From: Geodermatophilaceae bacterium
GTDB lineage: Bacteria > Actinomycetota > Actinomycetes > Mycobacteriales > Geodermatophilaceae
DNA: 34,138 nucleotides
Direction of reading: 5' to 3'
NCBI GenBank assembly: GCA_013814015.1
Contig: JACCQS010000380.1
Span: 1 to 34,138, forward strand
The first letter of the stretch is position 1, and every line of letters starts with the position of its first letter. This document shows, piece after piece, positions 3,681 through 28,182 of the stretch. The notes under the pieces were generated by a model. The model was not told the DNA's origin. It ran no database searches and saw nothing but the letters and a program-made list of their open reading frames with translations. The translations under genes were made by a program, and so were the position numbers.

Positions 3681-3798
3681 CTTCGCCGCCTCCTGCCCGA
3701 TGAAGAGCAGATGCCGGGGGGAAACCACGCAGGCACCCTACCGAGGCGGCGAGGTGTGGCCCGCCGGCTCTCGGACGAGCAGCCTTACGGTCAACGCC

Positions 3799-5609: not shown

Positions 5610-5650
5610 GGGCTGCCAGCCTAGCAAGGCAGGTCGTTAGGGTCGGGCCG

Positions 5651-6547: not shown

Positions 6548-6548
6548 T

Positions 6549-9132: not shown

Positions 9133-9170
9133 CGAGCCAGTGTCTCACTCAACTCCAACTAGGCTCGGTG
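9130..9170. repeat. Perfect 9-bp inverted repeat embedding both divergent GTG start codons
   Basis: CACCGAGCC (9130-9138) and GGCTCGGTG (9162-9170) flank a 23-nt spacer AGTGTCTCACTCAACTCCAACTA (10/23 GC). Each arm ends in the annotated GTG start of one of the two paralogous membrane-protein genes. Confidence 0.75.
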
Positions 9171-12723: not shown

Positions 12724-15700
12724 CTCGAGGCACCTGCCGGCGCTTGCCAGCCCATAATGGTCACTTCGCGGTCGGAAAGGTCGTAGGCGGCGGTGGGATA
12801 GGGGTTATCGAATCTGTACACCTGCAGCGTTGCGATCTCTGGGAAGTTCCGCAGCTGCGCGGGTAGCAGAACCGCCGAGGCCACACGCGTCACGGGACCG
12901 AAAAGTCCACCGGCGTAGATCGTCCAGGTGTTGTCGCTGAAGCCGTTCGTTCCTTCGGTGCCATAGAGCACGCCGTATTCGATCGGCTCGGTAACACCGT
13001 TCTGGACAACGGGCTGGCGTTGACAAGGAAACACGAACGAAAAGATCCACGAGACCCCGACGGCTGCATCTGCGGGGAGATAGTCCTGCAGGGAGATCAC
13101 GCGCTGGACCGACGGCGCCGTGAAGGCCAACCACCCTCCCGAATCCGCAGTCGCGTCTGTGGCCACCAGTCGAAGCACGATTGCCGCGGAGCCGATCTGT
13201 TCATCGATGTCCAGGGGGATGGAGCGCCAGACCGAACTGTCGATCGAGTCAGCGACCTCTTGACGGTCGAGAATGTCCAGTCGATCGTCTTCAAGACTCG
13301 CGTACTCGACGACAAGGCTGTTTCCGCCGTCCAGACGCCCACTGACAAGGATGCCAACGACCTCGTCACTTTGCAGTTCGTTCGGGATGACGAACCATGG
13401 GCTGACGTAGTCACCGGTGTCGTCTTCGCTGCCAGGTTCGGCTAGAGAGCCCCAGACTTGCGAGGCAGCGGGCGACCCCACGCCACCTGGCGGAGGAGCG
13501 GCGGCGAAAAAGCCGCCCTCTTCGACGAAGGGCGATCCGAGGTTCTCCTCATCGGCAGAAGCGGATCCACTGACTTGGGGTAGCGGCTGCGCTGTCGAGT
13601 CGGCCACAACATCGATGGCTCCGGCAGCGTCACACTCTGTGGCAAGTGGATCTTGGAGGTTGCTGGCCCACGGCGAATAGGTGTCCCACGTCCGGGCGCT
13701 GGCCACGCCGAAACTACCGACCAGATATCCGGTGGACAGCACTAGAAAGAGAACGGCCATGACGGGCGCTGTGACGAACGGCACGATTCCCCGCCACGAC
13801 AACTGAGAACGCCGCGCCCACCAGCCCAGAATGGTCAGCACCACCGCATAGCCCACCAGCCATGCTGGAATGCTGGCCAACTCCAGCGGACCCATCGCTG
13901 GAGGGACTCCCGCATCGGACATACCAAGTAGCCACGAGTAAGGCCAGGAGTTCGGGCCGCGAAAGGACAAGGCGAACACGACGATGGCGGTGAACGCCAA
14001 GGTCAACGAGATTGATCGCGCAACGCGCCGGCCTTGCTTGAGTTGAGCCGCGATGGCTGGGGCAGAGAGCAGAAAGAGCGTCAGAAATGCCGGTCCCAGA
14101 GCGGCGAGGCTGCCGAAGTGGTGGGTCCACTTGCTGGGGGTGATCCAGAACAGGACAAGTGCAAGAGCCAAGCTCGACCCAACGAGTTGCAGAACGGGGC
14201 TGAACTGGATACGCCGACCGCGGCTGACCGCGAAGAGCACAGCGAACCACACGAGGCAGGCTATTCCCAGTAGTACTGGGGCGCGCTTGGCGTAATTACC
14301 TTGCGGATCCGCCAGGAGCAGAAGGGCGTATCGGAAGTACTCTTGGTACCACTGTGTCTGTTCGAAGCGACTTAAGAAGATGTCCTGACCATGAAGAAAG
14401 TCGTGCAGGGATCCGTCACCGAATGCGACGGCGCTGGCCAGTCCTGCTGGAGCGAGGACTCCGATGATATTTCGGGTGGTCATTCCACGGGTTCGAGCCC
14501 GGATGATCGGCCACAAAAATGGCAGTCCTGCGATCAGTGGGGCAAGGGCGATGAAACCCGTGGGGTGACAGACGATGGACAATGCGGCGAATGCGCTGGC
14601 GAGCCCCAATGGAAAGAGGCGTTTCCTTCGCATGGATGAATATACCAGAATCAAGACTGCCGCTGACAACAGCGCGACGATCCCTTCCGGTCGAACACCC
14701 ATGTCAAAGGGTAGCCACCAAGCAAGAAATGTGACACTCAGAGTCGCCGCGACGATCAAGTCGCCCCAACTACTTGTACGAATGGCCTTCGGGAGGAAAT
14801 CCGCGCTAGTGACGAATTTACGGAGAAGAGCCCACGTCAGCAAACCTGCAGCAAGCGCCGGGATTCTCAGGAGAACCTGGCTGCTACCCACGAGTGATTC
14901 CCAGTATCCGAGCGTACGGTAGAACCACGTAAATGGTGTAAAACTTTGGTTCAGCAGCTGGTAGTAATTTCCGACATAGCCCTCGAGTGAACTGTTCCTG
15001 GCCATCGCGGCGTAGTAGCCATCGTCGTCGGTCATCGGTGCTATGAACAGCCATAGAATGAGTACAGCAGGAACGATGAGTTCGATCGCTCGTCGCGCGT
15101 GGCGATGTTTCGGTATCGCTCGTCCGTCTTCGATCACCAAGTCTGCGGGTCTACCGCTCGCGCGGTCGCGCAGCGCCAGGAACAGCAGGCTAGCTGCCGC
15201 GCACACAATGAGAAGAATGGTCAGCAGCAGCTTACCTGTGGTTGGTGTCGTCGAAAACTGATCGTCAACTGTGAGTCTGACCGAAAGGTCATTCCGTTCT
15301 CCGCCTGGCATTCGAGTAAGAGACGTTGCAAGCACATCGACTTGCGGGAGGGACACCGACTGGATCAGTTCAGGTTCGCCTGCATCTTTCCCGATCGTCA
15401 ACTGGTCGGCCTGGATCGACATGTGATATTGACAGTCAGCTGATCCAAGTGCGTCGTCGATGACTTGACGACCGGACACCGAGGCTGTTATCCGATCGTC
15501 TTTCGCCCGAACCACGAGGCCTAATTCATCGAGAGAAGGTTGCCCCGGACGGATTGTGGCGACGACGATTCCATCCTGAGTGTCAGCCGCAGATCTGGCA
15601 GCCGAACAGCTGAACCGAACTTCCATGCCTAGCGGCTGCTGCGCGGTGAGTTCGAGCATGGACGACTGGGGAGCGGTGGGATCAAGTGGCCACGACACGA

Positions 15701-15863
15701 CAGGTTGGTTCATATGGACCGGTGCTAATGGGAGCAGCAGCGCGGCTGCGATCGCGATGCACCCGGCTGCCAGGGCAACGGCATCCCACTTGTGCCTCTT
15801 CTTCGAGGTTCTCATCGATGTGTCCGGGCGCTCGTCCACCTCAGGCTGAGCGGCCCGCGCCAT
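12720..15863 (-). CDS. emb: Emb-type arabinosyltransferase (GT-C)
   Basis: 1047 aa. Emb-like N-terminal periplasmic domain, central multi-TM region with the GT-C acidic motif MTDDDGYYAAMAR (DDD at 15021-15029), and a ~300-aa C-terminal extracytoplasmic domain. Sits directly upstream of the PAP2 and DPPR-synthase genes. Confidence 0.88.
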   Translation of the reverse strand: MARAAQPEVDERPDTSMRTSKKRHKWDAVALAAGCIAIAAALLLPLAPVHMNQPVVSWPLDPTAPQSSMLELTAQQPLGMEVRFSCSAARSAADTQDGIVVATIRPGQPSLDELGLVVRAKDDRITASVSGRQVIDDALGSADCQYHMSIQADQLTIGKDAGEPELIQSVSLPQVDVLATSLTRMPGGERNDLSVRLTVDDQFSTTPTTGKLLLTILLIVCAAASLLFLALRDRASGRPADLVIEDGRAIPKHRHARRAIELIVPAVLILWLFIAPMTDDDGYYAAMARNSSLEGYVGNYYQLLNQSFTPFTWFYRTLGYWESLVGSSQVLLRIPALAAGLLTWALLRKFVTSADFLPKAIRTSSWGDLIVAATLSVTFLAWWLPFDMGVRPEGIVALLSAAVLILVYSSMRRKRLFPLGLASAFAALSIVCHPTGFIALAPLIAGLPFLWPIIRARTRGMTTRNIIGVLAPAGLASAVAFGDGSLHDFLHGQDIFLSRFEQTQWYQEYFRYALLLLADPQGNYAKRAPVLLGIACLVWFAVLFAVSRGRRIQFSPVLQLVGSSLALALVLFWITPSKWTHHFGSLAALGPAFLTLFLLSAPAIAAQLKQGRRVARSISLTLAFTAIVVFALSFRGPNSWPYSWLLGMSDAGVPPAMGPLELASIPAWLVGYAVVLTILGWWARRSQLSWRGIVPFVTAPVMAVLFLVLSTGYLVGSFGVASARTWDTYSPWASNLQDPLATECDAAGAIDVVADSTAQPLPQVSGSASADEENLGSPFVEEGGFFAAAPPPGGVGSPAASQVWGSLAEPGSEDDTGDYVSPWFVIPNELQSDEVVGILVSGRLDGGNSLVVEYASLEDDRLDILDRQEVADSIDSSVWRSIPLDIDEQIGSAAIVLRLVATDATADSGGWLAFTAPSVQRVISLQDYLPADAAVGVSWIFSFVFPCQRQPVVQNGVTEPIEYGVLYGTEGTNGFSDNTWTIYAGGLFGPVTRVASAVLLPAQLRNFPEIATLQVYRFDNPYPTAAYDLSDREVTIMGWQAPAGASS

Positions 15864-16121
15864 TCGGTATCGGGTCCCTTCATCGTCGGCGTGCGATCTG
15901 CAGTGCTCTGTGCCGACCCGCGGGTCAGAAGGGTGCGGATGGCTGGGAGTCGCCAGTTCGACGCGTTACGGTCAGGTTAGGTCCGGCCACGGTACCTGAG
16001 GCTGCTGGTTGGGCCGCGACGGGCGCGCCCGTGTCCGGCTACTGTTGGATGGGCCTGTGCGCCAGTAGCTGGCAGTTCGTCATGGTGGCTTGGGGACTAG
16101 TGAGCTAGGAGTGCAACGGGC

Positions 16122-17267
16122 ATGGCGGAGCGGGCGACGGGGCGTGACGATCTACTCGTCGTACTCAGTTACTACAGCCCGTACGTCAGTGGCCTGACGA
16201 ACGTGGCCCGTGACGTGGCCGAAGGACTGGCCGCTCGCGGTCGCCGAGTGCGGGTGATCACCACCCAGCACGATCCCAGCCTTCCTCGTTACGAGGTGCT
16301 CAACGGTGTCGAGGTCGAGCGAGCCCCGGTTGCCCTGCGTTTCGGCAAGGGGTCGATCAGCCCTGGTTTGCTCAGTCGGGTCACAAGGGCGGCCCGGTCA
16401 GCTCGGCTTGTGAATCTGCACCTTCCTATGCTTGAAGCCGGACTCCTCGCGCGCAGGGCAACCATTCCTGTTGTCATCACCTACCATTGCGACGTGAGTT
16501 TGCCGCCGGGAATCATCAACAGTTTGCAGCGACGAGTCATCGATGCATCAAGCCGAATGGCCATGAAGTCGGCGCAAAGAATCATTGTCACTTCACAGGA
16601 CTATGCTGACAATAGTCGGCTTGCAAGCAGTATTCGCGGGAAGTCTGTTGTGATTCCGCCGCCTTGTCACCAGTATCCAATCGGAGATCCTTCATTTCGA
16701 CAGACTGAGGGTCTTCATATCGGGTTTCTGGGTCGGATAGTTGAAGAAAAGGGTTTGGAGCACTTAGTACAGGCCTTCCGTCGCCTCCCCGCTCCTGATG
16801 CACGGCTGCTGATCGGTGGCGACTTCTCCAAACTCGCTGGTCGAAGCGTGATCGACCGAGTAACGGATCGCATTGGAGACGACAGCCGTATCCAGTTACT
16901 AGGATTTGTACGCGAAGACAGGCTCGCCGACTTCTATGCGTCAATAGACATCTTTGCGCTGCCCTCGATAAACGCTTTTGAAGCGTTCGGGATAGTGCAA
17001 GTCGAGGCCATGATGGCGGGTGTACCCGTTGTTGCCAGCGATCTGCCCGGTGTGCGGGTACCTGTCAGAGAGACTGGCCTCGGACGGATCGCCGCTCCAG
17101 CCGATGTCGATTCGATCGAGTCGGCGATAGGAGGTCTGATCACGTCGCCATTAGAGCGTGAGCGGGGGCGGGCTGTAGCCGTCAACCTCTACGCCGCAGC
17201 CGGGGTGATTGATCAGTACGATGATCTGCTCGAATCTCTGTCTTCCGGCTCGGCGTCCGCTCGATGA
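16122..17267 (+). CDS. Glycosyltransferase family 4 (GT-B)
   Basis: LVVLSYYSPYVSGLTNVARDVAEGLAARG N-terminus, GFLGRIVEEKG, and the E-x7-E motif in FALPSINAFEAFGIVQVEAMMAGVPVV. AGGAG lies 10 nt upstream of the ATG. Confidence 0.88.
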   Translation: MAERATGRDDLLVVLSYYSPYVSGLTNVARDVAEGLAARGRRVRVITTQHDPSLPRYEVLNGVEVERAPVALRFGKGSISPGLLSRVTRAARSARLVNLHLPMLEAGLLARRATIPVVITYHCDVSLPPGIINSLQRRVIDASSRMAMKSAQRIIVTSQDYADNSRLASSIRGKSVVIPPPCHQYPIGDPSFRQTEGLHIGFLGRIVEEKGLEHLVQAFRRLPAPDARLLIGGDFSKLAGRSVIDRVTDRIGDDSRIQLLGFVREDRLADFYASIDIFALPSINAFEAFGIVQVEAMMAGVPVVASDLPGVRVPVRETGLGRIAAPADVDSIESAIGGLITSPLERERGRAVAVNLYAAAGVIDQYDDLLESLSSGSASAR

Positions 17268-17725
17268 CACACGCAAGCCGGGCGCCCGCCGGCATTCCGG
17301 AGCACACCGGGCAGTCACACCGACGAAACGTGCCGTTGTTTCTCTTGATCGGCGGCATGAATGTCCTGTTGAGCTTGTTCGCTTTCGCGCTGCTCACATC
17401 CTTTTCGTGGTCGCCCATGAGAGGGCGGGAGATGGTGGCCTACATCATCGTCACGGTGCTCATCTCACTGCTGGCGGCCCTGCTGTGGGACCGGGTTGTG
17501 TGGCGAACCGACAGCAAGCGCAAGACTGTCGCGCTGTCACTGATCGTGCTGTGGTTTCTGGCCGCGGTCACCGGTCTGTTGGTCGAAGTATTGGTCGCCG
17601 AGACTGGCTGGAACTCCTTCGTGCTGGCCGCGCTGCTCACCGTCCCGGCTACGGCCGTGAACTACCTGTCCCAGGCCGGTCTGCGACGTCAGGCTGGGCG
17701 GCGTCGATCTGGACGCGCCGCATAG
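17264..17725 (+). CDS. GtrA-like small membrane protein
   Basis: 153 aa, four hydrophobic segments, LFLLIGGMNVLLSLFAFALL typical of the GtrA family. Its ATG overlaps the GT4 stop (ATGA at 17264-17267). Confidence 0.75.
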   Translation: MTHASRAPAGIPEHTGQSHRRNVPLFLLIGGMNVLLSLFAFALLTSFSWSPMRGREMVAYIIVTVLISLLAALLWDRVVWRTDSKRKTVALSLIVLWFLAAVTGLLVEVLVAETGWNSFVLAALLTVPATAVNYLSQAGLRRQAGRRRSGRAA

Positions 17726-18498
17726 AGGTAACCCAAGCCGCGATGTACCTGCGACTCATCGACCGTCACTCGGTAACCGCGGCGCCGGAGGCTGTGTGCA
17801 ATCTCGCCGACGTCGCGACCTGAACTCTCGTGGTATTCCATGACGATACGTGAGATCGCGTCGAAGACGGCATCAGGCGTGTCCAAAATGATCTCGAACT
17901 CGGCCCCTTCGCAATCGAGCTTGAGTAAGTCACAGTGACTGTCCGGTAGCGAAGGGAGCAGCGTCGACAGGGTTTTTCCTGGAACCGCATCGGGCGAGTC
18001 GGCGTCGACGTCGGAGGCGGCAGCGTGGAGCGATCGCAAACCGGCCTGACTCGGAGGGAGGTGCATCAGACGTTCGGTGGCAACGACTGCGGCCCGCTCC
18101 ACGATCACCTGTGATTCGGCGAGGCCGTTGAGGCGCAAGTTCGTCCGGAGAAGGTCGAGGGACGCGGCGGCAGGATCGACAGCGAGGATGACGCTGGCTC
18201 CCTGCTTCAGAGCGTGGACGACGAACTCGCCACTGGCACAACCGATATCGATGATGGTCCAACCCGGCTGAACCGCCAGGCCATGCTGACCGTAGAAGTC
18301 GTCAAGAAGCGTCTCCTTGATCGACCAAAGCTCCATGAAGCCACGGGCCTGCATCTTCGTGCCGTCAACTGAGACGGTGACGGGCGTTCCTTCCTCCCGC
18401 CGCGCGAGGAGCCTCAACGGAGCACCCAGCGGACGGACGCTACGCAGCAGCGTGCCTATTGAACCCAGGTAGTACGGGGCCGCACTGGCCTTGCGCAT
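17689..18498 (-). CDS. FkbM-family SAM-dependent methyltransferase
   Basis: IIDIGCASGEFVV (motif I) and LLKLDCEGAEFEIIL (FkbM motif). GAGGAG lies 8 nt upstream of the ATG at 18498. Confidence 0.85.
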   Translation of the reverse strand: MRKASAAPYYLGSIGTLLRSVRPLGAPLRLLARREEGTPVTVSVDGTKMQARGFMELWSIKETLLDDFYGQHGLAVQPGWTIIDIGCASGEFVVHALKQGASVILAVDPAAASLDLLRTNLRLNGLAESQVIVERAAVVATERLMHLPPSQAGLRSLHAAASDVDADSPDAVPGKTLSTLLPSLPDSHCDLLKLDCEGAEFEIILDTPDAVFDAISRIVMEYHESSGRDVGEIAHSLRRRGYRVTVDESQVHRGLGYLYAARPDRRRPA

Positions 18499-18506
18499 GT
18501 TGCGGT

Positions 18507-18531
18507 CTCCTCATGCCATGACATTGAGGAG
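18507..18531 (-). promoter_or_regulatory. Hairpin that sequesters the Shine-Dalgarno of the FkbM gene
   Basis: CTCCTCA (18507-18513) pairs with TGAGGAG (18525-18531): 7-bp stem, 11-nt loop. On the minus-strand mRNA the 3' arm is the GAGGAG SD of the CDS starting at 18498. Confidence 0.45.
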
Positions 18532-18578
18532 GTAGATGATCTCACTCGTGTCGGTTGGGCGTCGAGTTTGCCATGGCG

Positions 18579-20645
18579 TTACGCGAGCTGTCCGCCAACC
18601 GACGTCCACGTCGATCCGGTACCAGTTGGATTCGTGGCATTCAGCCACAAGCCAGAATCAGTGCCGCGTACGAAGGTCCACACCGTGCCGTCAGCCCACT
18701 CGACAGTCGCCGTCGCCGAAGTCGCCTGGCCACCGAGAGACAACTGCGCGAGTGACGATCGAATCTGTAGAAGTGAGCCAGTCGCCGTATTGACGGTGAC
18801 ACTGCCAACGCTGCGTGCCCAGAACGCGGTCGCTCCGACGCTCGGCGCCGCCGTCGAGATCTGTCCCGTCGCGGTCCAGGCTCCCGCTGGTCCTCCGGTC
18901 CAGTGCAGAAGTCGAGACCACACCAAGCCGTCCGTGCCAACAACCCGGATGCGGTAGAGGGAACTGCTCGACGCCTCGAGTGCCGGAGCGGAGATGCTCA
19001 GGCCGTCGAGTCGGGTCCACTCGCGCCAGACTGAGCCGTCCCACGTCAGCTGCCAGAGAGCGTTGTCCGTGCCGCGTGCGGTTACGGAGAGCACACCGTT
19101 CCCCGTGGAGGCGGCTGCCGGCGCCGTCGTGAGAACCCCGCCCAACCGGCGCCATGGTGTCCAGGAGGTTGGTTCGCCGCTTGCCGACGTGAACGTGACC
19201 GCTTGCCACAATGCGCCGTCCAGCCCGATGACGAACAGATCAACTCGCTTGCCATCCCAGCTCACAGCGGCCGGGGCTCCGACGAGTGTTCCTTCCGGCA
19301 CGGTGGTCCAAGCGCCGAATACACCGCCTCGTCCTACCTTGTAGACGACAGTGCCATCCGTGGCGCGAACGAACACGATGCCGGTGTCAGCGGCGGTGCG
19401 CACGGCCGCAATGCCAGCCGGTGAAATGTCCGGAAGGATCGGAGCACCCGGGAAGGAGAACCAATCCGATCGCAGACCCAGACTGCTGCGGAATTGATCA
19501 CCTGAGACGACAACGGATCGACTCGTTCCCGATACGCGGACAGCCAGGACCCGCCCGCCGTCAGCGCCCAGTCCATTGCGGGATGTGACGATCAACTCCT
19601 GCAGTTGGCCCACGCCGAATGCCGACTCGACGCTTGATGTCAGGACAGTCGTCGACCAGTTGTGGTACGGGCTGGCCGTGTCCCCGTCGTCACGTACGGC
19701 AGGAAAGGTCCCTCCAGCGGTGAAACCACCGGAAGAGGACGAGAACTCGGTACGGGCCACGGCGCCACCGAGGAGCCGGACCTGACCGTAGGTCGCATTC
19801 ACCGCGTCATCAGTCTGCGGATCTTCGATAAATCGGCCGTCTAGAGCCGCGCCCCCGTAGACCTGGCACGACGTGGTGTCGCATGTCTTGGCGTACCACG
19901 TCCGGTTCTCCGCCCACGCATAGGAACGCGCGGCGACACTTTGAGCCATCAGCGCCTGCATCCCTCGCCCCCCGTCCGCGCTGCCCCACGACGCCGGGGA
20001 CTCGCGGGGTACCACGCCCCGGAGATAGTGCTGGACGGTCAGGTAGTTGATCACCCGAATGCCGCCGTCCCATACGACACCGATGTGCCCGCGATAGGTG
20101 CGTCGCTCCGATCCGCAGGTCGTCAGCATGTCGCCGATGACCTCGGAGTACCGGTATGGCCGCATAACCGGATCCGACACGGAGAATGATCCTGTGACTG
20201 AACCGCCACAACCGGAGCGGGTGGTGAGTTGCCACGTGCCGTTCGAGTTTCGCGACAGCTGGGCACTTTGTCCGCCGCCGACCTGGTAGGGCCCGACGGT
20301 GTACGCGGCTGAGGAGACCAACTCCGGCGCAATGTTGTCCAGTGCCGAAAGCCGTACGGATATCCACGGATCACCGATGTAGCCTGCGGCTGTGTTGCTG
20401 TAATAGTGAGCCAGGATCTGCGCGTAGTCCCAGTCGTACTCCGTGGCATAGCCGTAGGAGCCCCATTGCGATAGGCCGCGCCCGTGCCCGTAGCCATGCC
20501 CGGTGATTGCGATGGTGGCCTCGGCCGCCTGTGCGCTCGCATCGTTGTCGGACATCGACGGACTCATGGTCAGCACCACTGCGAATGCCATCGTCGACAG
20601 AAGGCTGCGTGCCCAGGTGGATCGTGGCGCCGATGCCGCGGGCAT
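18579..20645 (-). CDS. Secreted SpoIID/LytB-domain protein with C-terminal six-repeat Trp-rich propeller-like module
   Basis: Signal peptide MPAASAPRSTWARSLLSTMAFAVVLTM...ASAQA, then a SpoIID signature ITGHGYGHGRGLSQWGSYGYA ... LGLRSDWFSF. About 290 aa of ~45-50-aa repeats follow (e.g. VLSVTARGTDNALWQLTWDGSVWREWTRLDG). ATG at 20645 (GGAAGG 8 nt upstream) overlaps the upstream stop as TGATG; an alternative GTG lies at 20675. Confidence 0.85.
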   Translation of the reverse strand: MPAASAPRSTWARSLLSTMAFAVVLTMSPSMSDNDASAQAAEATIAITGHGYGHGRGLSQWGSYGYATEYDWDYAQILAHYYSNTAAGYIGDPWISVRLSALDNIAPELVSSAAYTVGPYQVGGGQSAQLSRNSNGTWQLTTRSGCGGSVTGSFSVSDPVMRPYRYSEVIGDMLTTCGSERRTYRGHIGVVWDGGIRVINYLTVQHYLRGVVPRESPASWGSADGGRGMQALMAQSVAARSYAWAENRTWYAKTCDTTSCQVYGGAALDGRFIEDPQTDDAVNATYGQVRLLGGAVARTEFSSSSGGFTAGGTFPAVRDDGDTASPYHNWSTTVLTSSVESAFGVGQLQELIVTSRNGLGADGGRVLAVRVSGTSRSVVVSGDQFRSSLGLRSDWFSFPGAPILPDISPAGIAAVRTAADTGIVFVRATDGTVVYKVGRGGVFGAWTTVPEGTLVGAPAAVSWDGKRVDLFVIGLDGALWQAVTFTSASGEPTSWTPWRRLGGVLTTAPAAASTGNGVLSVTARGTDNALWQLTWDGSVWREWTRLDGLSISAPALEASSSSLYRIRVVGTDGLVWSRLLHWTGGPAGAWTATGQISTAAPSVGATAFWARSVGSVTVNTATGSLLQIRSSLAQLSLGGQATSATATVEWADGTVWTFVRGTDSGLWLNATNPTGTGSTWTSVGGQLA

Positions 20646-22705
20646 CAGAAGAGCCTTCCGCCCAGAGGCTGCCACGAGAAGACGCCCCTACTCGGGCTCC
20701 AACCGCTTGCCCACAGTTGTCCGTCGATTCCACGGACGTAGACGTCCACGCCACCATCAGGCTCCCGCACGATGCCGACGGTCGAAGTCGCAACCCCACC
20801 TACGTTGATCGTGGAGCCGTTCGCCGGGTTCAGCAACGACACCCCGCGCCGGCTGTCGCCAATCGTCAACGTGCCGGCTTGTGCTGGTGTCGGTCCCGTG
20901 GCATCGCTTTGTGGACCCAGAGACGACGGCAGCATGCCTCCGCTCCAGGCCCCTGTCGCCCCAGGCCCGTCTGCGCCGGTCGGAATCCGCCAGATGCGGC
21001 CATCGAGTCCCACAGTCGAGACGATGTACCCAGGGGCAGCACCGAGCGGAGCCCGTTCAACCGCGGGAGCGGACACCGATACACCGCCCAGGCTCGTCCA
21101 GCCGCGGTACCGGGATCCGTCCCAGTTCATCTGGAAGATGGCACCGTCGGTGCCTCGTCCGAGAATGGTCATGAGATTTGGCCCGGCGGTTGCAATCGTT
21201 GGAGCTGACGTGAAAACGCCGCCCAGGGCAACCCACGGTCGCCACGTAACGGGGACCCCGTTGACGTCGTAAGGGGCGTTGGTCACCCAATAGCCGCCGT
21301 CGACTCCGCGGACTGCAAGGTGCAGATGGGCTCCGTCACTGAATGCGGCGACCCCGAGGGTCGACACTCCGGCCGGAAGGGCTGTGTATGGACCCCATTC
21401 CCCGGCGATTGTCCTGGTTCGCGTGAACAGTGTGGAATCCGCGCCGCGGACGACGATGGTCGTCTGCCCGGAAGCAGCGCGGGCAGCAGCCACCGCGGCG
21501 TTGCTGATATCAGTCAGCGGTGTCTGCCCGGCGACTCGAGTCCGGATCTCGTCCAGTCGCGCGTAACCGTATTGCCCAGGACACGTGGTGCTGCCGACAT
21601 CTCTATGGCCGAAGATCGTGGGCAGAGTTACCGTTTGACCGGCGGGATAGCGCGAGGTTCCACCGCCACCCGATACGAGTTGGGTGGAACCCAGCGGGTT
21701 GACACCGTACAGACCGAGCTTCCACGCGATGACAGCCACGACAGCGTCGATCATCGCCGGTGGGGTGCCTACTACATCGTAGTTACCCAGCATGGACACG
21801 CCGAAAGTGAAGGTATTGAATCCCCCTGCGTGCGCCCCAATCACGGAGCTGGCAATTCCGCCGTATCGTCCTTCCCAGATTCGGCCGAACTTGTCGACAA
21901 CAGCGTTGTATCCGATGTCCCCCCAGCCACGACTGACTGCGTGGTAGTAGTAGATACCGCGCAGCAGCGCTGGTACGTCCTCCGCGTCGTAGTCGTTGGA
22001 ATCGGCGGTGTGGTGCAGCGTTGCGGCTTTCGTGGTCGATGCGTACTCCGGATTCCAGGAGCGGATGCTTTCGTCGGCTCCCCACTGAGCACGTGAGTAG
22101 ATGGGCGGGGCGGCGTTGGCCGCTGCTTCGGAAGGCTCCACCGTATTCTGCGGCTGCGACGGGGCTGCGTCGGCAGGGGAATCCCCGGGATCGAGCAGAA
22201 TAAGTCGCACGTCCTGCGGATCGGCACCTGTGAGGGTGAGAACTTCCAGCTCGACGCCGAAACTGGGACCGACCCACCGTGCTTCACTGCCGCCTCGTTG
22301 CTCCCCATTCGCGGTGGCCTCCGGATTGGGAGCCGTTCCGACGTCATCTGTTCCCAAGTCTGTCCATCCCGATGATGAACCTGCGTCGTCATACACCCGG
22401 AGCCGAAGCGCAATATTCCGCACTGCTGGATCGAGGCTCCACGTGACGGCCACCAGAGAGAATTCCGGTGTTTCTGCTTGGGTCGCGGTCAGGACGGGCG
22501 TCGTCTCGTACCCGGGAACGTCCTGCGTCGTGCCTTGTTGCACATCTCCCCCGCCGCGGGGGGCAGAGACGGTTCCGAGCGGGATCTCTTGAACGGCCGT
22601 GCGCACCGGTACGGGCGGGGGAGCCGATTGAGCGTGCACCGGAAGCAGGAGCAACAAAGTGGTCATCCCGGCCGTGGCAGCTGAACCGATCATCACACGG
22701 CGCAT
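20645..22705 (-). CDS. Secreted N-acetylmuramoyl-L-alanine amidase (Amidase_2/PGRP) with C-terminal six-repeat Trp-rich propeller-like module
   Basis: Signal peptide MRRVMIGSAATAGMTTLLLLLPVHAQS. Amidase_2 strings YSRAQWGADE, ATLHHTAD, GWGDIGYNAVVD, GAHAGGFNTFTFGVSMLGNYD, GHRDVGSTTCPG (about 21536-22108). The repeat module spans about 20648-21508. ATG at 22705 is preceded by AGGAGA; the ORF track start at 22720 is less likely. Confidence 0.88.
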   Translation of the reverse strand: MRRVMIGSAATAGMTTLLLLLPVHAQSAPPPVPVRTAVQEIPLGTVSAPRGGGDVQQGTTQDVPGYETTPVLTATQAETPEFSLVAVTWSLDPAVRNIALRLRVYDDAGSSSGWTDLGTDDVGTAPNPEATANGEQRGGSEARWVGPSFGVELEVLTLTGADPQDVRLILLDPGDSPADAAPSQPQNTVEPSEAAANAAPPIYSRAQWGADESIRSWNPEYASTTKAATLHHTADSNDYDAEDVPALLRGIYYYHAVSRGWGDIGYNAVVDKFGRIWEGRYGGIASSVIGAHAGGFNTFTFGVSMLGNYDVVGTPPAMIDAVVAVIAWKLGLYGVNPLGSTQLVSGGGGTSRYPAGQTVTLPTIFGHRDVGSTTCPGQYGYARLDEIRTRVAGQTPLTDISNAAVAAARAASGQTTIVVRGADSTLFTRTRTIAGEWGPYTALPAGVSTLGVAAFSDGAHLHLAVRGVDGGYWVTNAPYDVNGVPVTWRPWVALGGVFTSAPTIATAGPNLMTILGRGTDGAIFQMNWDGSRYRGWTSLGGVSVSAPAVERAPLGAAPGYIVSTVGLDGRIWRIPTGADGPGATGAWSGGMLPSSLGPQSDATGPTPAQAGTLTIGDSRRGVSLLNPANGSTINVGGVATSTVGIVREPDGGVDVYVRGIDGQLWASGWSPSRGVFSWQPLGGRLF

Positions 22706-22925
22706 GAACTCTCCTGTCATACCCCATCAGGGCCCGTGCCCATTAGCACGGGGGACCTCGAACCGCTCGCCCAGATTTATTCGGGCGTCCCGCGTGTCGT
22801 GCGGAGTTCCGAGGAGGCGTGGGGCTACAGTGACCTATGCGACAGCTGTGACGCAAGTGGTTGAGGGTAACAATGTTTCTCACGCCTGTCCGTCTCTTGA
22901 CGCCGATATGGCAGGGTCTTGAGAC

Positions 22926-23771
22926 ATGCGCTCAGCCAACCGTGTTCGTGCAGCGCTGCGTGCGAGTGAGGGAGCTCTTCGTCGTGCCGTATTCGCCAGC
23001 AGCCATATTCGTGACACGCTGATCGCGCAGCGCGAACTCGTGGACCGCTATCGAACGGCGGGGCATGAACCACCTGACCTGACCGCCTACGAACTGCGCG
23101 TCTTCTCCCAGAACGGCGAGGACGGTGTGATCGCCGAACTCCTTCGACGCTGTGGCGTCGGCAACAAGTTCTTCGTCGAGTTCGGCGTAGAGAACGGAAG
23201 TGAGTGCAACACGGCGTTCCTGGCCCACACGATGGGCTGGTCAGGAATCTATTTCGAACCGCACGCGCCGTCGTATGAAGCACTGGAGTTCCGGTACCGC
23301 AACAACCCTCGGGTCACGGCGCTGCCGCATGCCATCACCGCTGAGAACGTCGCGGAGAGGTTCGCCGCCGCCGGTGTACCGGATGAGCCGGACATCCTCA
23401 GCATCGACATCGACGGAAACGATTACTGGATCTGGAAGGCGCTTGACGGATATCGGCCCAGGATCGTCATCATCGAGTACAACTCCGCGTTGGATCCGGC
23501 CGTCCCGCTGGTCCAGCCCTACGGACAGGCCCAGGGATGGGATCACAGCAGCGGGTATTCGGCGTCCCTGGCCGCCTTAGAAGTTGTGGCCAAGCAGAAG
23601 GGCTACCGGCTGGCGCACACCGAGTCGATCGGGGCCAACGCATTCTTTGTGCGGGAGGATCTGGCCTCGGGACTACCAACCGAGGTGCCACGTCGGGCGG
23701 CCAACTTTGCTTTCAGCGGCGCAGGGTGGCACCCCGCTCCCAAACACCCACCCGAATGGCATCGCCCGTAG
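22926..23771 (+). CDS. Putative FkbM-like methyltransferase-fold protein
   Basis: VFSQNGEDGVIAELL...FFVEFGVENGSECNT...ILSIDIDGNDYWIWKAL...RIVIIEYNS. The SQ-x-GED plus I-D-x-x-G-x pattern resembles a subgroup annotated as FkbM or class I methyltransferases. Function is less certain than for the other two. Confidence 0.65.
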   Translation: MRSANRVRAALRASEGALRRAVFASSHIRDTLIAQRELVDRYRTAGHEPPDLTAYELRVFSQNGEDGVIAELLRRCGVGNKFFVEFGVENGSECNTAFLAHTMGWSGIYFEPHAPSYEALEFRYRNNPRVTALPHAITAENVAERFAAAGVPDEPDILSIDIDGNDYWIWKALDGYRPRIVIIEYNSALDPAVPLVQPYGQAQGWDHSSGYSASLAALEVVAKQKGYRLAHTESIGANAFFVREDLASGLPTEVPRRAANFAFSGAGWHPAPKHPPEWHRP

Positions 23772-23779
23772 CTGCGCCG

Positions 23780-24430
23780 CTACTGCTTGGCAGCCACCAC
23801 CACGAACTCGTTGTAGGGAAAGACCCTGCCAGCGATGCGCGGGAGCGGAAACGAGTATTGCCGGCGTAGGCCAAGTCCTAGGCCTTCAGCCAGCGCTCGA
23901 AGCTCGGGGAAGCCGCAGAATCGTATGTGCGTTGGGTCGGTGGTGTACCCCTTCTCCTGCGGGCAGATGAAGACAACCCTGCCCCCGGGTCGCAGGTAGT
24001 CGAGGTACTCCCGGACGATGTCCAGCGCCTGCTGCTCGCCGACGTGCTCGATCACATGGGCAAGCAACAGCGAGTCGAACGCCGCCGGAGCTGCGTGCTT
24101 TGAGGCGTGGAAGTCGGCGACGGTAAAGGCGGCAAGGCCACGAGCTTGGGCGATGGCGATCGAGTCGGCGTTGTGATCCACGCCGATCCCGTTGCCGTCC
24201 AAGTGCCCGAGATTGCGCCCGATCCCGCAGCCGATCTCGAGCACCCGTCCGAGGTTGAGCCGGCGGATATTCCACCGGTAGGGAGCTTGGACGTCCAGGA
24301 TCCGCTTCCAGCGAGCCGTCTCCAGGCGCTGCAGACGAGCGGCATAGTCCGCTCCGGCGGTGTCCTCACCGGCCAGTCCGGGACCCGGCTCGGCGGCTGA
24401 ACGGACGGAACGACCAGTCGGGCGATTCAC
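23780..24430 (-). CDS. Class I SAM-dependent methyltransferase (Methyltransf_11-like)
   Basis: VLEIGCGIGRNLGHL (motif I), GIGVDHN, FDSLLLAHVIEHV, LRPGGRVVFICP; GTG start at 24430. Confidence 0.85.
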   Translation of the reverse strand: MNRPTGRSVRSAAEPGPGLAGEDTAGADYAARLQRLETARWKRILDVQAPYRWNIRRLNLGRVLEIGCGIGRNLGHLDGNGIGVDHNADSIAIAQARGLAAFTVADFHASKHAAPAAFDSLLLAHVIEHVGEQQALDIVREYLDYLRPGGRVVFICPQEKGYTTDPTHIRFCGFPELRALAEGLGLGLRRQYSFPLPRIAGRVFPYNEFVVVAAKQ

Positions 24431-24504
24431 CCGTCGAGCCTAACGGCCGACCATGCGTGGGTAGGGTCGTAGCCCGTGCGTCGACCAACTTCGGGGCAGA
24501 GGCG

Positions 24505-25569
24505 ATGAGCCGCGAGGTCGCAAGCATCGCAGCGGTGTCTTCGCCGCTGCTGTCGGTGGTCGTTCTCGCCTACGGTGACGAGCCCTACCTCAGCGATGCT
24601 GTACGGGCGATTCTGGCTTCACAGGATCGCCGTGGCCACGAGCTGGACCTCGAGGTCGTGCTGGTCGACAACGGGGCGAGCCAGGAGGCCATGGCACAGG
24701 TTGCCGGACTGCCGCGGGTGCGCGTACTGACTCCGATGGAGAACACCGGTTTCGCCGGCGGCTGCAACCTCGGTGCGGCCAAGAGCAGGGGGGCCTTCCT
24801 GGCATTGGTCAACTCCGACGCATCGGTGACCGAGGACGCGTTGGTCAGGCTCCTGGAGGTCGCGGCCGAGTCGGGTGTCGGCATCGCGACGAGCAGTCTG
24901 CGACTGGCCGATGCGCCCGAGACGATCAACTCCGCCGGAAATCCCCTGCACCTGTCCGGGCTCGTCTGGGCAGGCTCGTACGGCCAGCCAGCGACTCGCC
25001 ATCGGAAACGCCAGCAGGTGGCCTGCGCCAGTGGGGCTGCACTGGCGCTGCGCCGCGGCCTGTGGGAGGAACTGGGCGGCTTCGCTCCGGAGTACTTCGC
25101 CTACCACGAGGACACCGAATTGAGCCTGCGCTGTTGGCAACGTGGACTGACGGTGGTCTATGTCCCGGATGCCGTGGTGCTGCACCACTACGAGTTCTCC
25201 CGTACCCCGACCAAGCTCTACCTGGTCGAGCGCAATCGACTCGTGCTGGTCGCCACTGCCTACAGCGGACGGCTGATACTGCTGCTCTCGCCACTGTTGG
25301 TCGTGTTCGAGATTGCGGTGGTCTGCTCCGCGATTGCTGGCGGTTGGTGGTCCCAGAAATGGGCCGGATGGCGCTGGGTGATCCGCAATCTTGGCTGGAT
25401 CCGGAGCCGACGAGCTCAGTTGCAGAGCGAACGCACAGTGAGCGACCGAGAACTCGCCGGTCTGTTCAGTGGTCGGCTCGATGCCGCAAACATCGACATA
25501 CCCAGAGTCATGTCGGTGTTGAACCCCCTGGTGGTCGGCTACTGGGCCGTCGTACGCCGCCTGCTCTGA
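24505..25569 (+). CDS. Glycosyltransferase family 2 with C-terminal membrane segments
   Basis: LLSVVVLAYGDEPYLSDAVRAIL, VVLVDNGAS, ENTGFAGGCNLGA, LVNSDA, YHEDTELSLR, then hydrophobic LILLLSPLLVVFEIAVVCSAIAGGWW. ATG at 24505 preferred; an alternative GTG lies at 24457. Confidence 0.85.
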   Translation: MSREVASIAAVSSPLLSVVVLAYGDEPYLSDAVRAILASQDRRGHELDLEVVLVDNGASQEAMAQVAGLPRVRVLTPMENTGFAGGCNLGAAKSRGAFLALVNSDASVTEDALVRLLEVAAESGVGIATSSLRLADAPETINSAGNPLHLSGLVWAGSYGQPATRHRKRQQVACASGAALALRRGLWEELGGFAPEYFAYHEDTELSLRCWQRGLTVVYVPDAVVLHHYEFSRTPTKLYLVERNRLVLVATAYSGRLILLLSPLLVVFEIAVVCSAIAGGWWSQKWAGWRWVIRNLGWIRSRRAQLQSERTVSDRELAGLFSGRLDAANIDIPRVMSVLNPLVVGYWAVVRRLL

Positions 25570-26909
25570 CCCTCCGGGATCCGAAGCCGGACGAGCATCC
25601 GGACCACACCGTGCGTGGAGAACAGCTCTATGAGTGTGATCGCGCTGCCGATGACGATCGCGTTGGCCGCGATGAGCATGCCGGTGGACTTCCCAAAGAC
25701 CAGCAAGGCCGCGAAGTGAATGACCGCCAGGCCGACAAAGGCAAAGCCGAAGCCGCGATCACGCGCAGCGATTGCGATCGTCAGGTGGACGTTGAGGATC
25801 CCCGCGCCGGTCATGATCAGCGTGATCGGAAAGATCAAGTTCCCCGCCTGCGCGTACGCAGATCCGAATATGGCGACGATGAGCCGGTCGGAGGCAAGCA
25901 GAAAGGTTGTTGCGGTCAGCAGCCCCACGCCGACGACGGTCAGCAGGGTCAGCAGGGTGGCCTTGGCGTAATCCAAGCCTCTGGTGATGCGTTCGCTCAC
26001 TTTGGGCAGCAGAACGAAGCCCAACGACACGGTCGCATAGAGAGCCACCTTGCCCAGCAACGCCGCTGAGGAGTACGTGGCTGCCACCTCAGGGGCAAGT
26101 CGGATCTTCGCCGTGACGATGTCGATGTTGGTGATGGCTGCGAACGCGAGCAGGCAGCCGATCGGAAGGCCGAGCAGGTGCGTTGGGTCGCCCGGATGGC
26201 GCGCTCTGGTCAAGCCCCGGATCGGCCGAAGAGTCCCGCGCAGTGACCACAGCACCGTCGCGGAGCCGACGAGGGTGGCCAGGATCAGTGCGAGTAACGC
26301 GCCGTGCAGTCCCAGCAGCAGCACCAGCGGGAAAAGGAAGAGCAGCCGCAGGATCCCCAGCGGACCGGCAAGTACCCATCCCACGGTGGGAAAGCCGCTG
26401 AAGCCCTGGATCGGACCGAGCAGTGCCTGCACACCGGTTGCGAGGGCAAACCAGATGGCGGCAAGGAGCCAGACCGTGGGTTGGCTGAGGCCGAAGAGGT
26501 ACGAGCTGACCGGCGTGATGGCGGCGAACAGAGCGAACAGGGCGACTTGGACGACAAGGACCCGGCAGAACAGCCAACGGATCATCGCTGTCACGTCGTT
26601 CCCGTCGCCTCGGGCACGGGACTGGGCCACGTCCCTGGCCATCGCGGCCTGCACGCCGCTGATCGGCGTGAGCACGATCAGCGCCAGCGACGTCAAAGAC
26701 GCCAGTGCTGCGAACTCGCCGGGATCGAGAGAACGAGCCGCGACGACGTAGAAGAGGAAATTGCCGAGGTGGCCGATCAGCGAGGCGATCAGCACGATCA
26801 ATCCCTCGCGCATGGCGCCCCTTGCCGAAGGTGCATTCAGCGGAGAAGGTGCGGCGAGCGCGGAAGCATTCCCGCCTTCCCGGGACGGGCCCTGCTCCTG
26901 ACTGCTCAT
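25539..26909 (-). CDS. MOP-superfamily polysaccharide flippase (Wzx / polysaccharide biosynthesis protein type)
   Basis: 456 aa, roughly 12-14 hydrophobic segments by eye, N-terminus ...LIVLIASLIGHLGNFLFYVVAARSL typical of this family. Its ATG overlaps the DUF2304 stop (ATGA at 26906-26909). Confidence 0.8.
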   Translation of the reverse strand: MSSQEQGPSREGGNASALAAPSPLNAPSARGAMREGLIVLIASLIGHLGNFLFYVVAARSLDPGEFAALASLTSLALIVLTPISGVQAAMARDVAQSRARGDGNDVTAMIRWLFCRVLVVQVALFALFAAITPVSSYLFGLSQPTVWLLAAIWFALATGVQALLGPIQGFSGFPTVGWVLAGPLGILRLLFLFPLVLLLGLHGALLALILATLVGSATVLWSLRGTLRPIRGLTRARHPGDPTHLLGLPIGCLLAFAAITNIDIVTAKIRLAPEVAATYSSAALLGKVALYATVSLGFVLLPKVSERITRGLDYAKATLLTLLTVVGVGLLTATTFLLASDRLIVAIFGSAYAQAGNLIFPITLIMTGAGILNVHLTIAIAARDRGFGFAFVGLAVIHFAALLVFGKSTGMLIAANAIVIGSAITLIELFSTHGVVRMLVRLRIPEGQSRRRTTAQ

Positions 26910-27310
26910 TGCTCGCGGTCACCGAGTTGCGAGCTCGGATTGTCGGCGGCAGCTTCCTTGATCTGGCGGTTGCCCACTTCCAGCTCTTCCACTCTGCTGC
27001 GCAACAGCGCCAGCTCCTCGGCCAGGGACCGCGTTTCGTCCTCCAGCCGGGACAGTTCCCAGGACAGGTGTACCGAGACCCCGAGCAGCAAGGTCAGCGC
27101 CAAGAGGAAGAGAAGGTTGGCCGGCACCTCGAAACCCAACGCCTCGGATGCCCAGTTCAGCAGGCCCGGGGCGATGAGCAAGATGAGCACGCCTAAACCG
27201 ACTATTAGCCAGAGCGCGGCGTACTTCTCCGAAAGCTGTCGTCGGCGCAAGAGTTCCAGCATGAGCCCGAGGACGACAACAGCGCCGGCGATGGCGACCA
27301 CGTAATTCAC
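26906..27310 (-). CDS. DUF2304-family small membrane protein
   Basis: VNYVVAIAGAVVVLGLMLELLRRRQLSEKYAALWLIVGLGVLIL... followed by a C-terminal coiled-coil-like tail. The GTG at 27310 overlaps the upstream GT2 stop (GTGA at 27307-27310). The longer 252-aa track ORF is an out-of-frame overlap with the GT2 gene. Confidence 0.78.
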   Translation of the reverse strand: MNYVVAIAGAVVVLGLMLELLRRRQLSEKYAALWLIVGLGVLILLIAPGLLNWASEALGFEVPANLLFLLALTLLLGVSVHLSWELSRLEDETRSLAEELALLRSRVEELEVGNRQIKEAAADNPSSQLGDREQ

Positions 27311-28095
27311 CGCACCGGCACCGGGTGGTCCGGGTCGAGCATGACCATGGTCGGCCAGCGGCGAATCCTTGCCAGAAGCAGGATCAGCGCAGCCCGAAAG
27401 AGATACACCGCGGCTCCGGTCGGCGACTTGCTGGGCTTTCCGCCTGCGCGCGGTCGCATGTGGACCGGCACCTGGGTGACGGTGAGTCCGGCCCGGATGG
27501 CGATGACCAGGGACTCGATCGTGTCGCCGAGGAACTCGGCAGGATAGTGCCGGGCGTACAGCGAGATCGCTCGGCGATTCGCCGCTCGAAACCCCGAGGT
27601 CGTGTCGGTGAGCCTGGTTCTCGCCATCCTCGTGAGCACCTTGGCCAGCAAGGTCATCGCCCAACGGCGAGGCCCCGTGACGCGATAGCCGCCCTCGTCG
27701 GCAAAGCGGGCGCCGACCACGACATCGGCCGTGCCGGTGGCATCGTCGTCGGAACCCACCGGCCGGGAGAGCTGGCCGACGAGGTCCATGATCTCGCTCG
27801 GATCGTGCTGACCGTCCGCGTCGACCTGGATCACCGCGTCGTAGTGGTGGTGCAACGCGAACTTGAACCCGGCCCGCATTGCTGCGCCGACACCGAGATT
27901 GAACGGGAGAACCAGGACCGCCGCTCCGGCCGCGCGAGCCCGGTCAACGGTGCGATCGGCGGACCCGTCGTCGACTACCAGCACGTCGGCTTGGGGAACT
28001 GCAGCCTGGATCTCGCGGATCGTGCCCGCGATGCACTCCTCCTCGTTCCACGCCGGTGTCACGACCAAGAGGCGCAACGAAGGCGGCTCGGGCAT
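27307..28095 (-). CDS. GT2 polyprenyl-phosphate glycosyltransferase (PpgS/GtrB/Dpm1-like)
   Basis: LLVVTPAWNEEECIAGTIREI, VLVVDDGSADRT, QVDADGQHDP, TSGFRA. Paired with a DUF2304 gene as in M. tuberculosis ppgS (Rv3631)-Rv3632. ATG at 28095 chosen within ORF ..28293. Confidence 0.85.
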   Translation of the reverse strand: MPEPPSLRLLVVTPAWNEEECIAGTIREIQAAVPQADVLVVDDGSADRTVDRARAAGAAVLVLPFNLGVGAAMRAGFKFALHHHYDAVIQVDADGQHDPSEIMDLVGQLSRPVGSDDDATGTADVVVGARFADEGGYRVTGPRRWAMTLLAKVLTRMARTRLTDTTSGFRAANRRAISLYARHYPAEFLGDTIESLVIAIRAGLTVTQVPVHMRPRAGGKPSKSPTGAAVYLFRAALILLLARIRRWPTMVMLDPDHPVPVR

Positions 28096-28182
28096 GGTCG
28101 TTGAGCGTAGTTGAGCCAACCGGTCATCTCGAACGGCCGTCACCCGGTCGCCAGGCTGAGCCGCCCGGTAGCTTCTCCACAC

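Follow-up and report, generated by a model that had tools for sequence, protein, structure and literature searches.

The window analysed here is a 34,138-nucleotide stretch of a Geodermatophilaceae bacterium (contig JACCQS010000380.1), and it carries two neighbouring genes that probably encode a co-transcribed, secreted, two-enzyme peptidoglycan-cleaving unit with a shared lectin propeller as its address label. The upstream gene (20645..22705, minus strand) encodes a 686-amino-acid (aa) amidase with a signal peptide, an Rv3811_N domain, an Amidase_2 core and a six-repeat PLL-like propeller. The downstream gene (18579..20645, minus strand) encodes a 688-aa SpoIID/LytB-type protein with a signal peptide, a permuted SpoIID core holding a beta-rich insert, and a six-repeat PLL-like propeller of its own. 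The amidase, a member of the Rv3811/Ami3 family, would act at N-acetylmuramoyl-L-alanine to remove stem peptides, and the SpoIID/LytB-type protein would cleave the denuded glycan, stimulate the amidase, or both. The duplicate propellers would place both enzymes on the same wall ligand, allowing sequential reactions at one place. We infer the order of the reactions, the co-localisation of the enzymes and the identity of the ligand from the comparisons below. A sequence-only reading had already proposed that the products of the two genes work together as peptidoglycan hydrolases, and that proposal is now supported by an adjacency far above chance, by fusions of both enzymes in a single open reading frame (ORF) and by retained catalytic residues.

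We scanned species-representative genomes with an alignment of this SpoIID type; Actinomycetes and Acidimicrobiia together yielded at least 404 loci, of which 80 were fetched. Pairing was counted over the 52 loci that had at least 2.5 kb of sequence on both sides. An Amidase_2 gene lay within about 6 kb of the SpoIID gene at 35 of the 52 (67%), against a chance expectation of about 1% by a rough estimate. These 35 comprised 17 adjacent same-strand pairs with homologous tails, one fusion, seven divergent adjacent pairs and ten nearby pairs; a second amidase-SpoIID fusion sits in a locus with short flanks. Partner tails were homologous in 26 of the 27 non-divergent pairs (29-84% identity over >190 aa), and the unrelated tail types common to both partners were PLL/DUF346, FG-GAP-like, DUF4214, a GYW...DGG repeat and LGFP. 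The adjacency and the shared C-terminal module on which the sequence-only reading had staked its proposal were thus found in related genomes at these frequencies (35/52 loci and 26/27 pairs, respectively). The gene pair is widespread in actinobacteria and occurs in at least five versions with matched tails, of which the PLL form in the window is one. In Modestobacter versicolor, orthologous amidase-PLL and SpoIID-PLL genes stand amid LCP, epimerase, GT2, acyltransferase and FkbM genes, and four more metagenomic PLL-type pairs have the same arrangement.

Three contigs from Geodermatophilaceae metagenome-assembled genomes fuse both enzymes in one ORF of ~1020 aa (L006:2893-5967, L012:179-3289 and L017:4741-7788), reading Rv3811_N, Amidase_2, a linker of 8-10 aa, SpoIID and one FG-GAP-like tail. 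Such fusions provide a Rosetta-stone argument that the enzymes would function jointly and that one tail may serve both. Comparison of tails between loci gave a partner as the best match for 8 of 62 tails, while 24 amidase tails best matched another amidase tail and 26 SpoIID tails another SpoIID tail. The data speak against ongoing concerted evolution of partner tails, as most tails match orthologous tails at other loci; the exceptions were L011, L063 and L085. Because tails match their orthologues rather than their own partners, the matched-tail arrangement appears to be mainly old and co-inherited within each type, having been installed independently in each.

Layout and tails varied between lineages. 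Divergent amidase and SpoIID genes, 30-200 bp apart and near ubiA, were seen in Mycobacteriales, namely Rhodococcus, Gordonia and Williamsia (L039-L045, L053-L057). LGFP repeats were present on both partners in Gordonia and Williamsia, the Rhodococcus partner tails being mutually dissimilar, and LGFP tails also occurred in Geodermatophilus paralogues and orthologues. The Acidimicrobiia carried a ~260-aa tail of GYW(L/M)VASDGG(I/V)FAFGDA.F.GS repeats, for which there was no convincing Pfam family; it was common to both partners at 59-63% identity (L030:5974-7980 and L086:3059-5068, with their partners). One locus (L025:3777-7794) held tandem SpoIID-type genes, the second 34% identical to the query core, and no amidase.

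We then considered the tails of the window pair. The amidase propeller (20648..21514, minus strand; aa 398-686) and the SpoIID propeller (18582..19439, minus strand; aa 403-688) each contain six repeats, the fifth of which is degenerate. The two ~290-aa tails align collinearly (36% identity, E 8e-45), and each repeat finds its best match at the same place in the partner tail (47% for the third repeats, S3-A3). These repeat alignments confirmed six collinear repeats per protein with repeat 5 degenerate in both, as had been read from the sequence. No further copies of the tail module were found in the window. A phmmer search of the PDB matched both proteins to the lectin PHL (5mxe), the SpoIID protein with E 3.6e-43 and the amidase with E 5.9e-21. 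Precomputed PF26607 (Beta-prop_PLL) matches lie on both tails and PF03984 (DUF346) is matched in relatives, the related L011 tail giving six DUF346 matches (E 4e-34); a local Pfam copy, apparently without the PF26607 model, gave no match to either tail even at E 10. Foldseek placed PLL-family lectins at the top (E 1e-18 to 1e-16), followed by the six-bladed AAL/AFL fucose lectins, with target-normalised TM-scores of 0.64-0.68 for the AAL family versus 0.57-0.62 for PLL lectins. The earlier assignment of the repeats to the DUF346/PLL lectin family was therefore correct by the PHL match, PF26607 and Foldseek.

In the AlphaFold2 models, both tails have 24 strands, equal to six blades of four, and we predict six-bladed propellers of the PLL family, not the seven-bladed form of PLL lectins. 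A propeller in the C-terminal regions had been suggested beforehand, and the models agree, with six predicted blades whose repeats match a lectin family. Tails of all PLL-type pairs span 268-309 aa. The hydrophobic fucose site of PHL is formed by Thr194, Trp199 and Trp214 (PMC5584973). In both protein families, equivalents of its two Trp were strongly conserved as an aromatic pair in five blades (1-4 and 6), and blade 5 had lost every residue of the site in both proteins. Elsewhere, PF26607 propellers are fused to PgdA-type deacetylase, GH18, M23, Amidase_2/3, glucosaminidase and YkuD domains. This range of fusions to wall-enzyme domains points to PF26607 propellers as general accessory modules of wall enzymes.

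The SpoIID/LytB-type protein matched SpoIID (PF08486) over aa 193-289 (68.7 bits; cutoff 23) and TIGR02669 SpoIID_LytB (131.9 bits; cutoff 83.3), and failed the sporulation equivalog TIGR02870 spore_II_D (61.5 bits; cutoff 234.75). Glu215 (codon 20001..20003, minus strand), in the motif YLRGVVPRES, aligned with the catalytic-Glu motif GVVasEm of Bacillus anthracis SpoIID (4rwr) and was invariant in alignments of 30 and 65 sequences. Loss of the catalytic Glu had been seen as a threat to the hydrolase assignment; on the alignment to 4rwr and in the 65 homologues this residue is kept. We take Glu215 to be the equivalent of E88 in B. subtilis SpoIID, a residue reportedly identified by Morlot et al. 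in 2010. The GHGxGxSQ motif and four Cys were likewise invariant or nearly so in the 65 homologues, at identities down to 35%. The four Cys (C146, C177, C255 and C260; ~19866-20210) may pair as disulfides or bind a metal in the permuted core and its beta-rich insert. The AlphaFold2 model of this protein had a mean predicted local distance difference test (pLDDT) score of 89.3. In Foldseek searches with the SpoIID core and with Rv3811_N, the top 50 results were swamped by propeller matches.

The order of segments in the SpoIID core departs from that of the sporulation protein. An N-terminal GHGYGHGRGLSQWG segment (20391..20516, minus strand; aa 44-85) corresponds to the C-terminal end of canonical SpoIID. 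HMMER aligned aa 45-85 to 4rwr residues 276-315 and the later core to residues 63-268, that is, in reversed order, and TIGR02870 positions 286-333 mapped to aa 37-85. The canonical order, with the GHGxGMSQ segment C-terminal, was thus not found: the segment precedes the core. From the reversed order of the two aligned pieces, we conclude that the core is circularly permuted relative to sporulation SpoIID. The N-terminal position of the GHGxGxSQ segment was also found in most of the 80 fetched loci. The loci picked out by the pattern GHG[YWF]GHGRG (at least 404, actinobacterial and acidimicrobial, L007-L086 among them) likewise have the segment at the N-terminus.

Amidase_2 (PF01510) covers aa 225-378 of the partner (53.6 bits; curated cutoff 26), and PGRP structures match this core at E 1e-15. 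The Amidase_2/PGRP catalytic core (21551..22114, minus strand; ~aa 198-385) contains the motifs HHT (H231/H232), GYN (Y266) and GHRDVGSTTCPG (H367, C375). Among 27 amidase homologues, H231, Y266 and H367 were invariant and C375 was at least 90% conserved. The HHT, GYN and GHRDVGSTTCPG motifs aligned with the catalytic PGRP-LB, which has TeCPG, whereas the non-catalytic PGLYRP1 has TLSPG, with Ser for Cys. The upstream protein is therefore predicted to be a catalytically competent zinc amidase that keeps the H/H/C Zn site. Its N-terminal ~170 aa had been left unassigned in the sequence-only reading; the region itself was borne out but now has a Pfam name, Rv3811_N (PF27503), from precomputed matches on the cluster of the window protein and on orthologues. 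This beta-rich domain (22181..22603, minus strand; ~aa 35-175) was modelled with strands at aa 37-172 and pLDDT 84-92; the local Pfam copy, apparently without the PF27503 model, gave no match for it even at E 10. The order Rv3811_N then Amidase_2 places the amidase in the Mycobacterium tuberculosis Ami3/Rv3811 family. The amidase is 47% identical to its Modestobacter orthologue over the whole length, and alignment with that orthologue favours a start at 22705 over the alternative start at 22720 (691 aa) found in databases. Its AlphaFold2 model had a mean pLDDT of 73.4, with the propeller well modelled and the catalytic core poorly; the core model was left out of the analysis for its low confidence.

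The two genes overlap by stop and start at TGATG (20643..20647, minus strand), running from the amidase into the SpoIID gene and read as ...GGRLF* / ATGCCC. This overlap, also present in Modestobacter versicolor (L002) and in L089 and L090, may couple translation of the two genes. An FkbM-family methyltransferase gene (17689..18498, minus strand) follows on the same strand 80 bp downstream of the SpoIID gene (Methyltransf_21, E 3.7e-10; TIGR01444, 70.6 bits versus a cutoff of 37.7) and is possibly a third operon member. The ORF call, profile searches and inspection of the sequence together upheld both ORFs, their domain assignments, the TGATG overlap and the same-strand FkbM neighbour. Evidence for signal peptides consists of N-terminal hydrophobic helices in the models (aa 11-26 and 2-19), not the output of a predictor. 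A scan of 17.5-23.1 kb for promoters and terminators gave no promoters and one terminator-like site, within the SpoIID gene, which is fewer than shuffled sequences lead one to expect. Megablast of the gene pair against plasmids gave no match; its nearest homologues are in Geodermatophilaceae, for example Modestobacter and Blastococcus. They place the window in or near this family, although the Emb and UbiA genes had at first suggested an origin in Mycobacteriales.

The pair lies within a hypervariable wall-glycan cassette (12720..28293, strand not specified) recognised by Pfam matches and by comparison with a syntenic metagenomic locus, L003. The cassette runs in the order Emb-type arabinosyltransferase (12720-15863), GT4, GtrA, FkbM, the SpoIID and amidase genes, an FkbM-like gene, MT11, GT2, a protein with 12 transmembrane segments (12-TM), DUF2304 and GT2; UbiA lies in the flank at 11234-12139. 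The window also holds PAP2, further GT2 genes, rmlA/B/C-type genes, DUF6541 proteins, GlgE and a GlgP-like gene. Identity between L003 and the window is 87-89% for the flanking UbiA, GlgP-like and ABC genes but drops to 46-55% from Emb to the methyltransferases, GT4 and the cores of both hydrolases included; L003 has other decoration genes, and FG-GAP-like tails versus PLL in the window. GC content at third codon positions was 0.60-0.73 in the cassette versus 0.78-0.84 in the flanks. The conserved flanks, the divergent cassette genes and the changed tail type together indicate that the hydrolase pair belongs to a hypervariable ~16-kb glycan cassette that looks swappable. In loci of Rhodococcus, Gordonia and Quadrisphaera, too, UbiA is a near neighbour of the pair.

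BLAST of the FkbM proteins of the window against all loci gave no homologues, and FkbM genes were detected across loci with a hidden Markov model built from six FkbM proteins. An FkbM-family gene was found within ~7 kb at 6/6 Geodermatophilaceae PLL-type loci and at 0/4 of the FG-GAP-type loci examined, the link being restricted to the former. FkbM-type genes in the window lie at 2982-3728 (minus), 17689-18498 (minus) and 22926-23771 (plus; weak), and rmlB/rmlA/rmlC-type genes at 4620-7175. The three FkbM-type genes and the rml-type genes suggest an O-methylated, rhamnose-containing polymer.

Other genes of the window and related loci showed further features. A GT2 gene, a gene for a small DUF2304 membrane protein and one for a ~450-aa 12-TM protein without Pfam match lie together at 25539-28293 (minus strand); the trio is kept in several PLL-type loci (L087:5066-7583, L088:3228-5727) at 44-71% identity and presumably resembles extracytoplasmic glycan decoration of the GacI/GacJ/GacL type. 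A 656-aa protein with ~12 transmembrane segments and no Pfam match (7162-9132, minus) is encoded head-to-head with a DUF6541 protein (9168-11216, plus). In Modestobacter, two unannotated paralogues of 665 and 686 aa directly follow the SpoIID gene (L002:12159-16216).

PLL-family lectins bind L-fucose and O-methylated sugars, including a PGL-1 disaccharide (PMC6943638), and a PHL-L-rhamnose complex is in the PDB (6rgr). Whole-cell sugars, rhamnose included, differ among Geodermatophilaceae strains (PMC9686282). From the variability of the cassette, the co-occurrence of FkbM, the sugar binding of PLL lectins and the variation in strain sugars, we infer that the tails most likely bind a decoration on the strain-specific wall glycan that the neighbouring cassette produces, with 6-deoxy sugars (L-rhamnose) or O-methylated sugars as candidates. 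The sequence-only reading had the propellers target the enzymes to the glycopolymer encoded by the neighbouring genes; the part that held is circumstantial, namely the change of cassette with tail type and the FkbM co-occurrence, and binding to peptidoglycan competes with it.

Several observations weigh against a glycan-targeted two-enzyme unit. Of the 52 well-flanked loci, 17 lacked an amidase within 6 kb, and in a close relative, Blastococcus sp. PRF04-17, a SpoIID-PLL gene (L001:10001-12040) is alone with no amidase nearby; the two enzymes therefore need not be partners in cis. The pair is known here from sequence and models, its enzyme activities being predicted, and the amidase core model is of low confidence. 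A SpoIID fold would be no guarantee of lytic transglycosylase activity, since LytB of B. subtilis is recorded as a protein that does not hydrolyse peptidoglycan. The blade number is given by repeat and strand counts rather than by coordinates. Conservation of the fucose-site Thr of PHL is poor in the tails, above all in that of the amidase, and on reading of the sequence the Arg/Glu pair of the polar (Gal) site is mostly absent. The FkbM link comes from six phylogenetically related loci, and the Acidimicrobiales PLL-type locus L011 had no FkbM gene in its short flank. The Blastococcus orthologue (L001) stands between genes for WYL-domain regulators, pup-proteasome genes and tatA/tatC.

The enzyme pair may be real while the propellers bind peptidoglycan or another invariant wall component, or mediate protein-protein association, rather than binding the glycopolymer of the neighbouring genes; we give this a minority share of our belief, but a substantial one. 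PF26607 propellers are joined to many peptidoglycan-active domains across diverse bacteria whatever the locus, other lineages replace the tail with the generic wall-anchoring LGFP or DUF4214, the Blastococcus gene stands outside any glycan locus, and the hydrophobic sites of PLL can hold Met side chains (PMC6943638). However, peptidoglycan is constant between close relatives, yet tails and glycan genes switch between the window and L003 where flanks are 87-89% identical. FkbM genes also stand beside 6/6 Geodermatophilaceae PLL-type pairs, and the PLL family is known to bind 6-deoxy and O-methyl sugars rather than MurNAc or GlcNAc (PMC6943638).

It is rather unlikely, though by no means far-fetched, that the SpoIID-like partner has no catalytic role and serves as a modifier to activate the amidase, in the way LytB/CwbA acts on LytC. 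PMC10653849 records LytB as non-hydrolysing and amidase-stimulating, and matched tails and fusions would suit an activator held beside its amidase equally well. Glu215, GHGxGxSQ and the four Cys are, however, conserved in 65 homologues with identities as low as 35%, as one would expect of a preserved active site more than of a scaffold. The catalytic and modifier roles are not exclusive.

A third explanation, that the pair is a secreted bacteriolytic weapon or nutrient scavenger whose tails, like the PLL lectins of Photorhabdus, bind glycans on the surface of other microbes, we consider improbable. Characterised PLL-family lectins act on foreign glycans and both proteins look secreted, but the pair has a fixed place in the organism's own wall locus (UbiA/Emb/GT4), with synteny extending to Quadrisphaera, Rhodococcus and Gordonia. 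The amidase, moreover, falls in the family of the mycobacterial autolysin Ami3, and neither an immunity gene nor a secretion-system context was seen among the annotated neighbours in the window. That the genes encode two independent hydrolases, neighbours by accident and sharing a tail only through a common local domain pool, is strongly disfavoured and hardly credible: some genomes do hold the SpoIID gene without a nearby amidase, but co-occurrence within 6 kb in 67% of loci, 26/27 matched tails, the overlap and three fusions are very hard to ascribe to chance.

Returning to the glycan-targeted two-enzyme unit, we offer tentatively a wider proposal: that the tails may be swappable address labels matched to the wall glycan of the strain, so that exchange of the cassette gives both hydrolases a fitting tail. 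If so, peptidoglycan cleavage would be licensed only where the correctly decorated glycan sits, with PLL tails standing for O-methylated or 6-deoxy sugars. Glycan-coded spatial control of autolysis would then extend across Actinomycetota, including the Ami3 lineage of Mycobacteriales. The window and more than 30 related loci predict that the enzymes act as a unit, that the duplicated targeting modules co-localise them, and that these modules track a variable glycan. If correct, these predictions would amount to a general rule for aiming autolysins in actinobacteria, including relatives of pathogens, for which Ami3 that escapes control is toxic. The tails themselves would form a natural set of six-bladed lectins that may be specific for O-methyl or 6-deoxy sugars of bacteria, and the permuted SpoIID core and natural amidase-SpoIID fusions are of use for structural work.

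All domains of the pair come from known families, and the architectures are already machine-annotated in databases. To our knowledge, no mechanism has been defined for the Ami3 (Rv3811) family or for SpoIID homologues of bacteria that do not form endospores. Literature searches of incomplete coverage, on Rv3811, on SpoIID in actinobacteria and Streptomyces and on permutation, turned up no paper on a SpoIID permutation or this permuted core, nor any account of the two genes as a pair, of their matched tails or of the fusions.

With the Photorhabdus PLL/PHL/PLL2-5 lectins, the tails share homologous repeats (E to 3.6e-43), the top structural match and the aromatic pair. They differ in having six repeats (one degenerate) instead of seven, and in being the C-terminal domain of a wall hydrolase instead of a stand-alone, secreted lectin. 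The AAL-family lectins (AAL, AFL/FleA, AOL) have the six-bladed topology predicted for the tails and gave slightly higher target-normalised TM-scores than PLL lectins, but are only 12-19% identical to them with much weaker E-values; AAL-family lectins bind fucose in a different manner based on hydrogen bonds (PMC5584973).

The amidase has the same order of Rv3811_N and Amidase_2 as mycobacterial Ami3 (Rv3811/MSMEG_6406), and in the window it lies in a ubiA/emb arabinan wall region. Rv3811, too, presumably lies near ubiA. Unlike Ami3, the protein here ends in a PLL propeller, not LGFP repeats. Its gene is paired, and may be translationally coupled, with one of SpoIID type. Mycobacteria have two Amidase_2 amidases, Rv3811 among them (PMC3987819). 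Ami3 is a potent autolysin that in M. smegmatis is toxic on accumulation and is held in check by HtrA (PMC12735335).

The sequence-only reading likened the pair to SpoIIP/SpoIID. In the SpoIIP/SpoIID(/SpoIIM) system an amidase strips peptides and SpoIID then cleaves the denuded glycan, a reaction logic that the pair would share, and the catalytic-Glu motif is conserved here. In contrast to that system, the window offers no sporulation context, the partner is an Amidase_2 enzyme, the proteins look secreted and lectin-tagged rather than membrane-anchored, and the core is permuted. No SpoIIM-like gene was among the annotated neighbours in the window. The likeness therefore stands for the reaction logic and falls short in amidase family, anchoring and context.

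In B. subtilis LytC/LytB, as here, an amidase and a SpoIID-domain protein are co-encoded and one wall-binding module is carried on both. LytC is an Amidase_3 enzyme and the module shared by LytC and LytB consists of N-terminal CWB2-type repeats, whereas the pair here has Amidase_2 with Rv3811_N, a C-terminal PLL-like propeller and a permuted SpoIID core that keeps its Glu. In PMC10653849, LytC (CwlB) and LytB (CwbA) are described as sharing wall-binding repeats in one operon, lytABC (Kuroda et al. 1992), and, on references cited there, LytB/CwbA is homologous to the LytC autolysin and SpoIID and stimulates amidases. The same paper records that LytB does not hydrolyse peptidoglycan. Because the amidase family and the binding module differ, the relation of the pair to LytC/LytB is analogous, not orthologous. 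LytC/LytB is the closest precedent, and a better one than SpoIIP/SpoIID.

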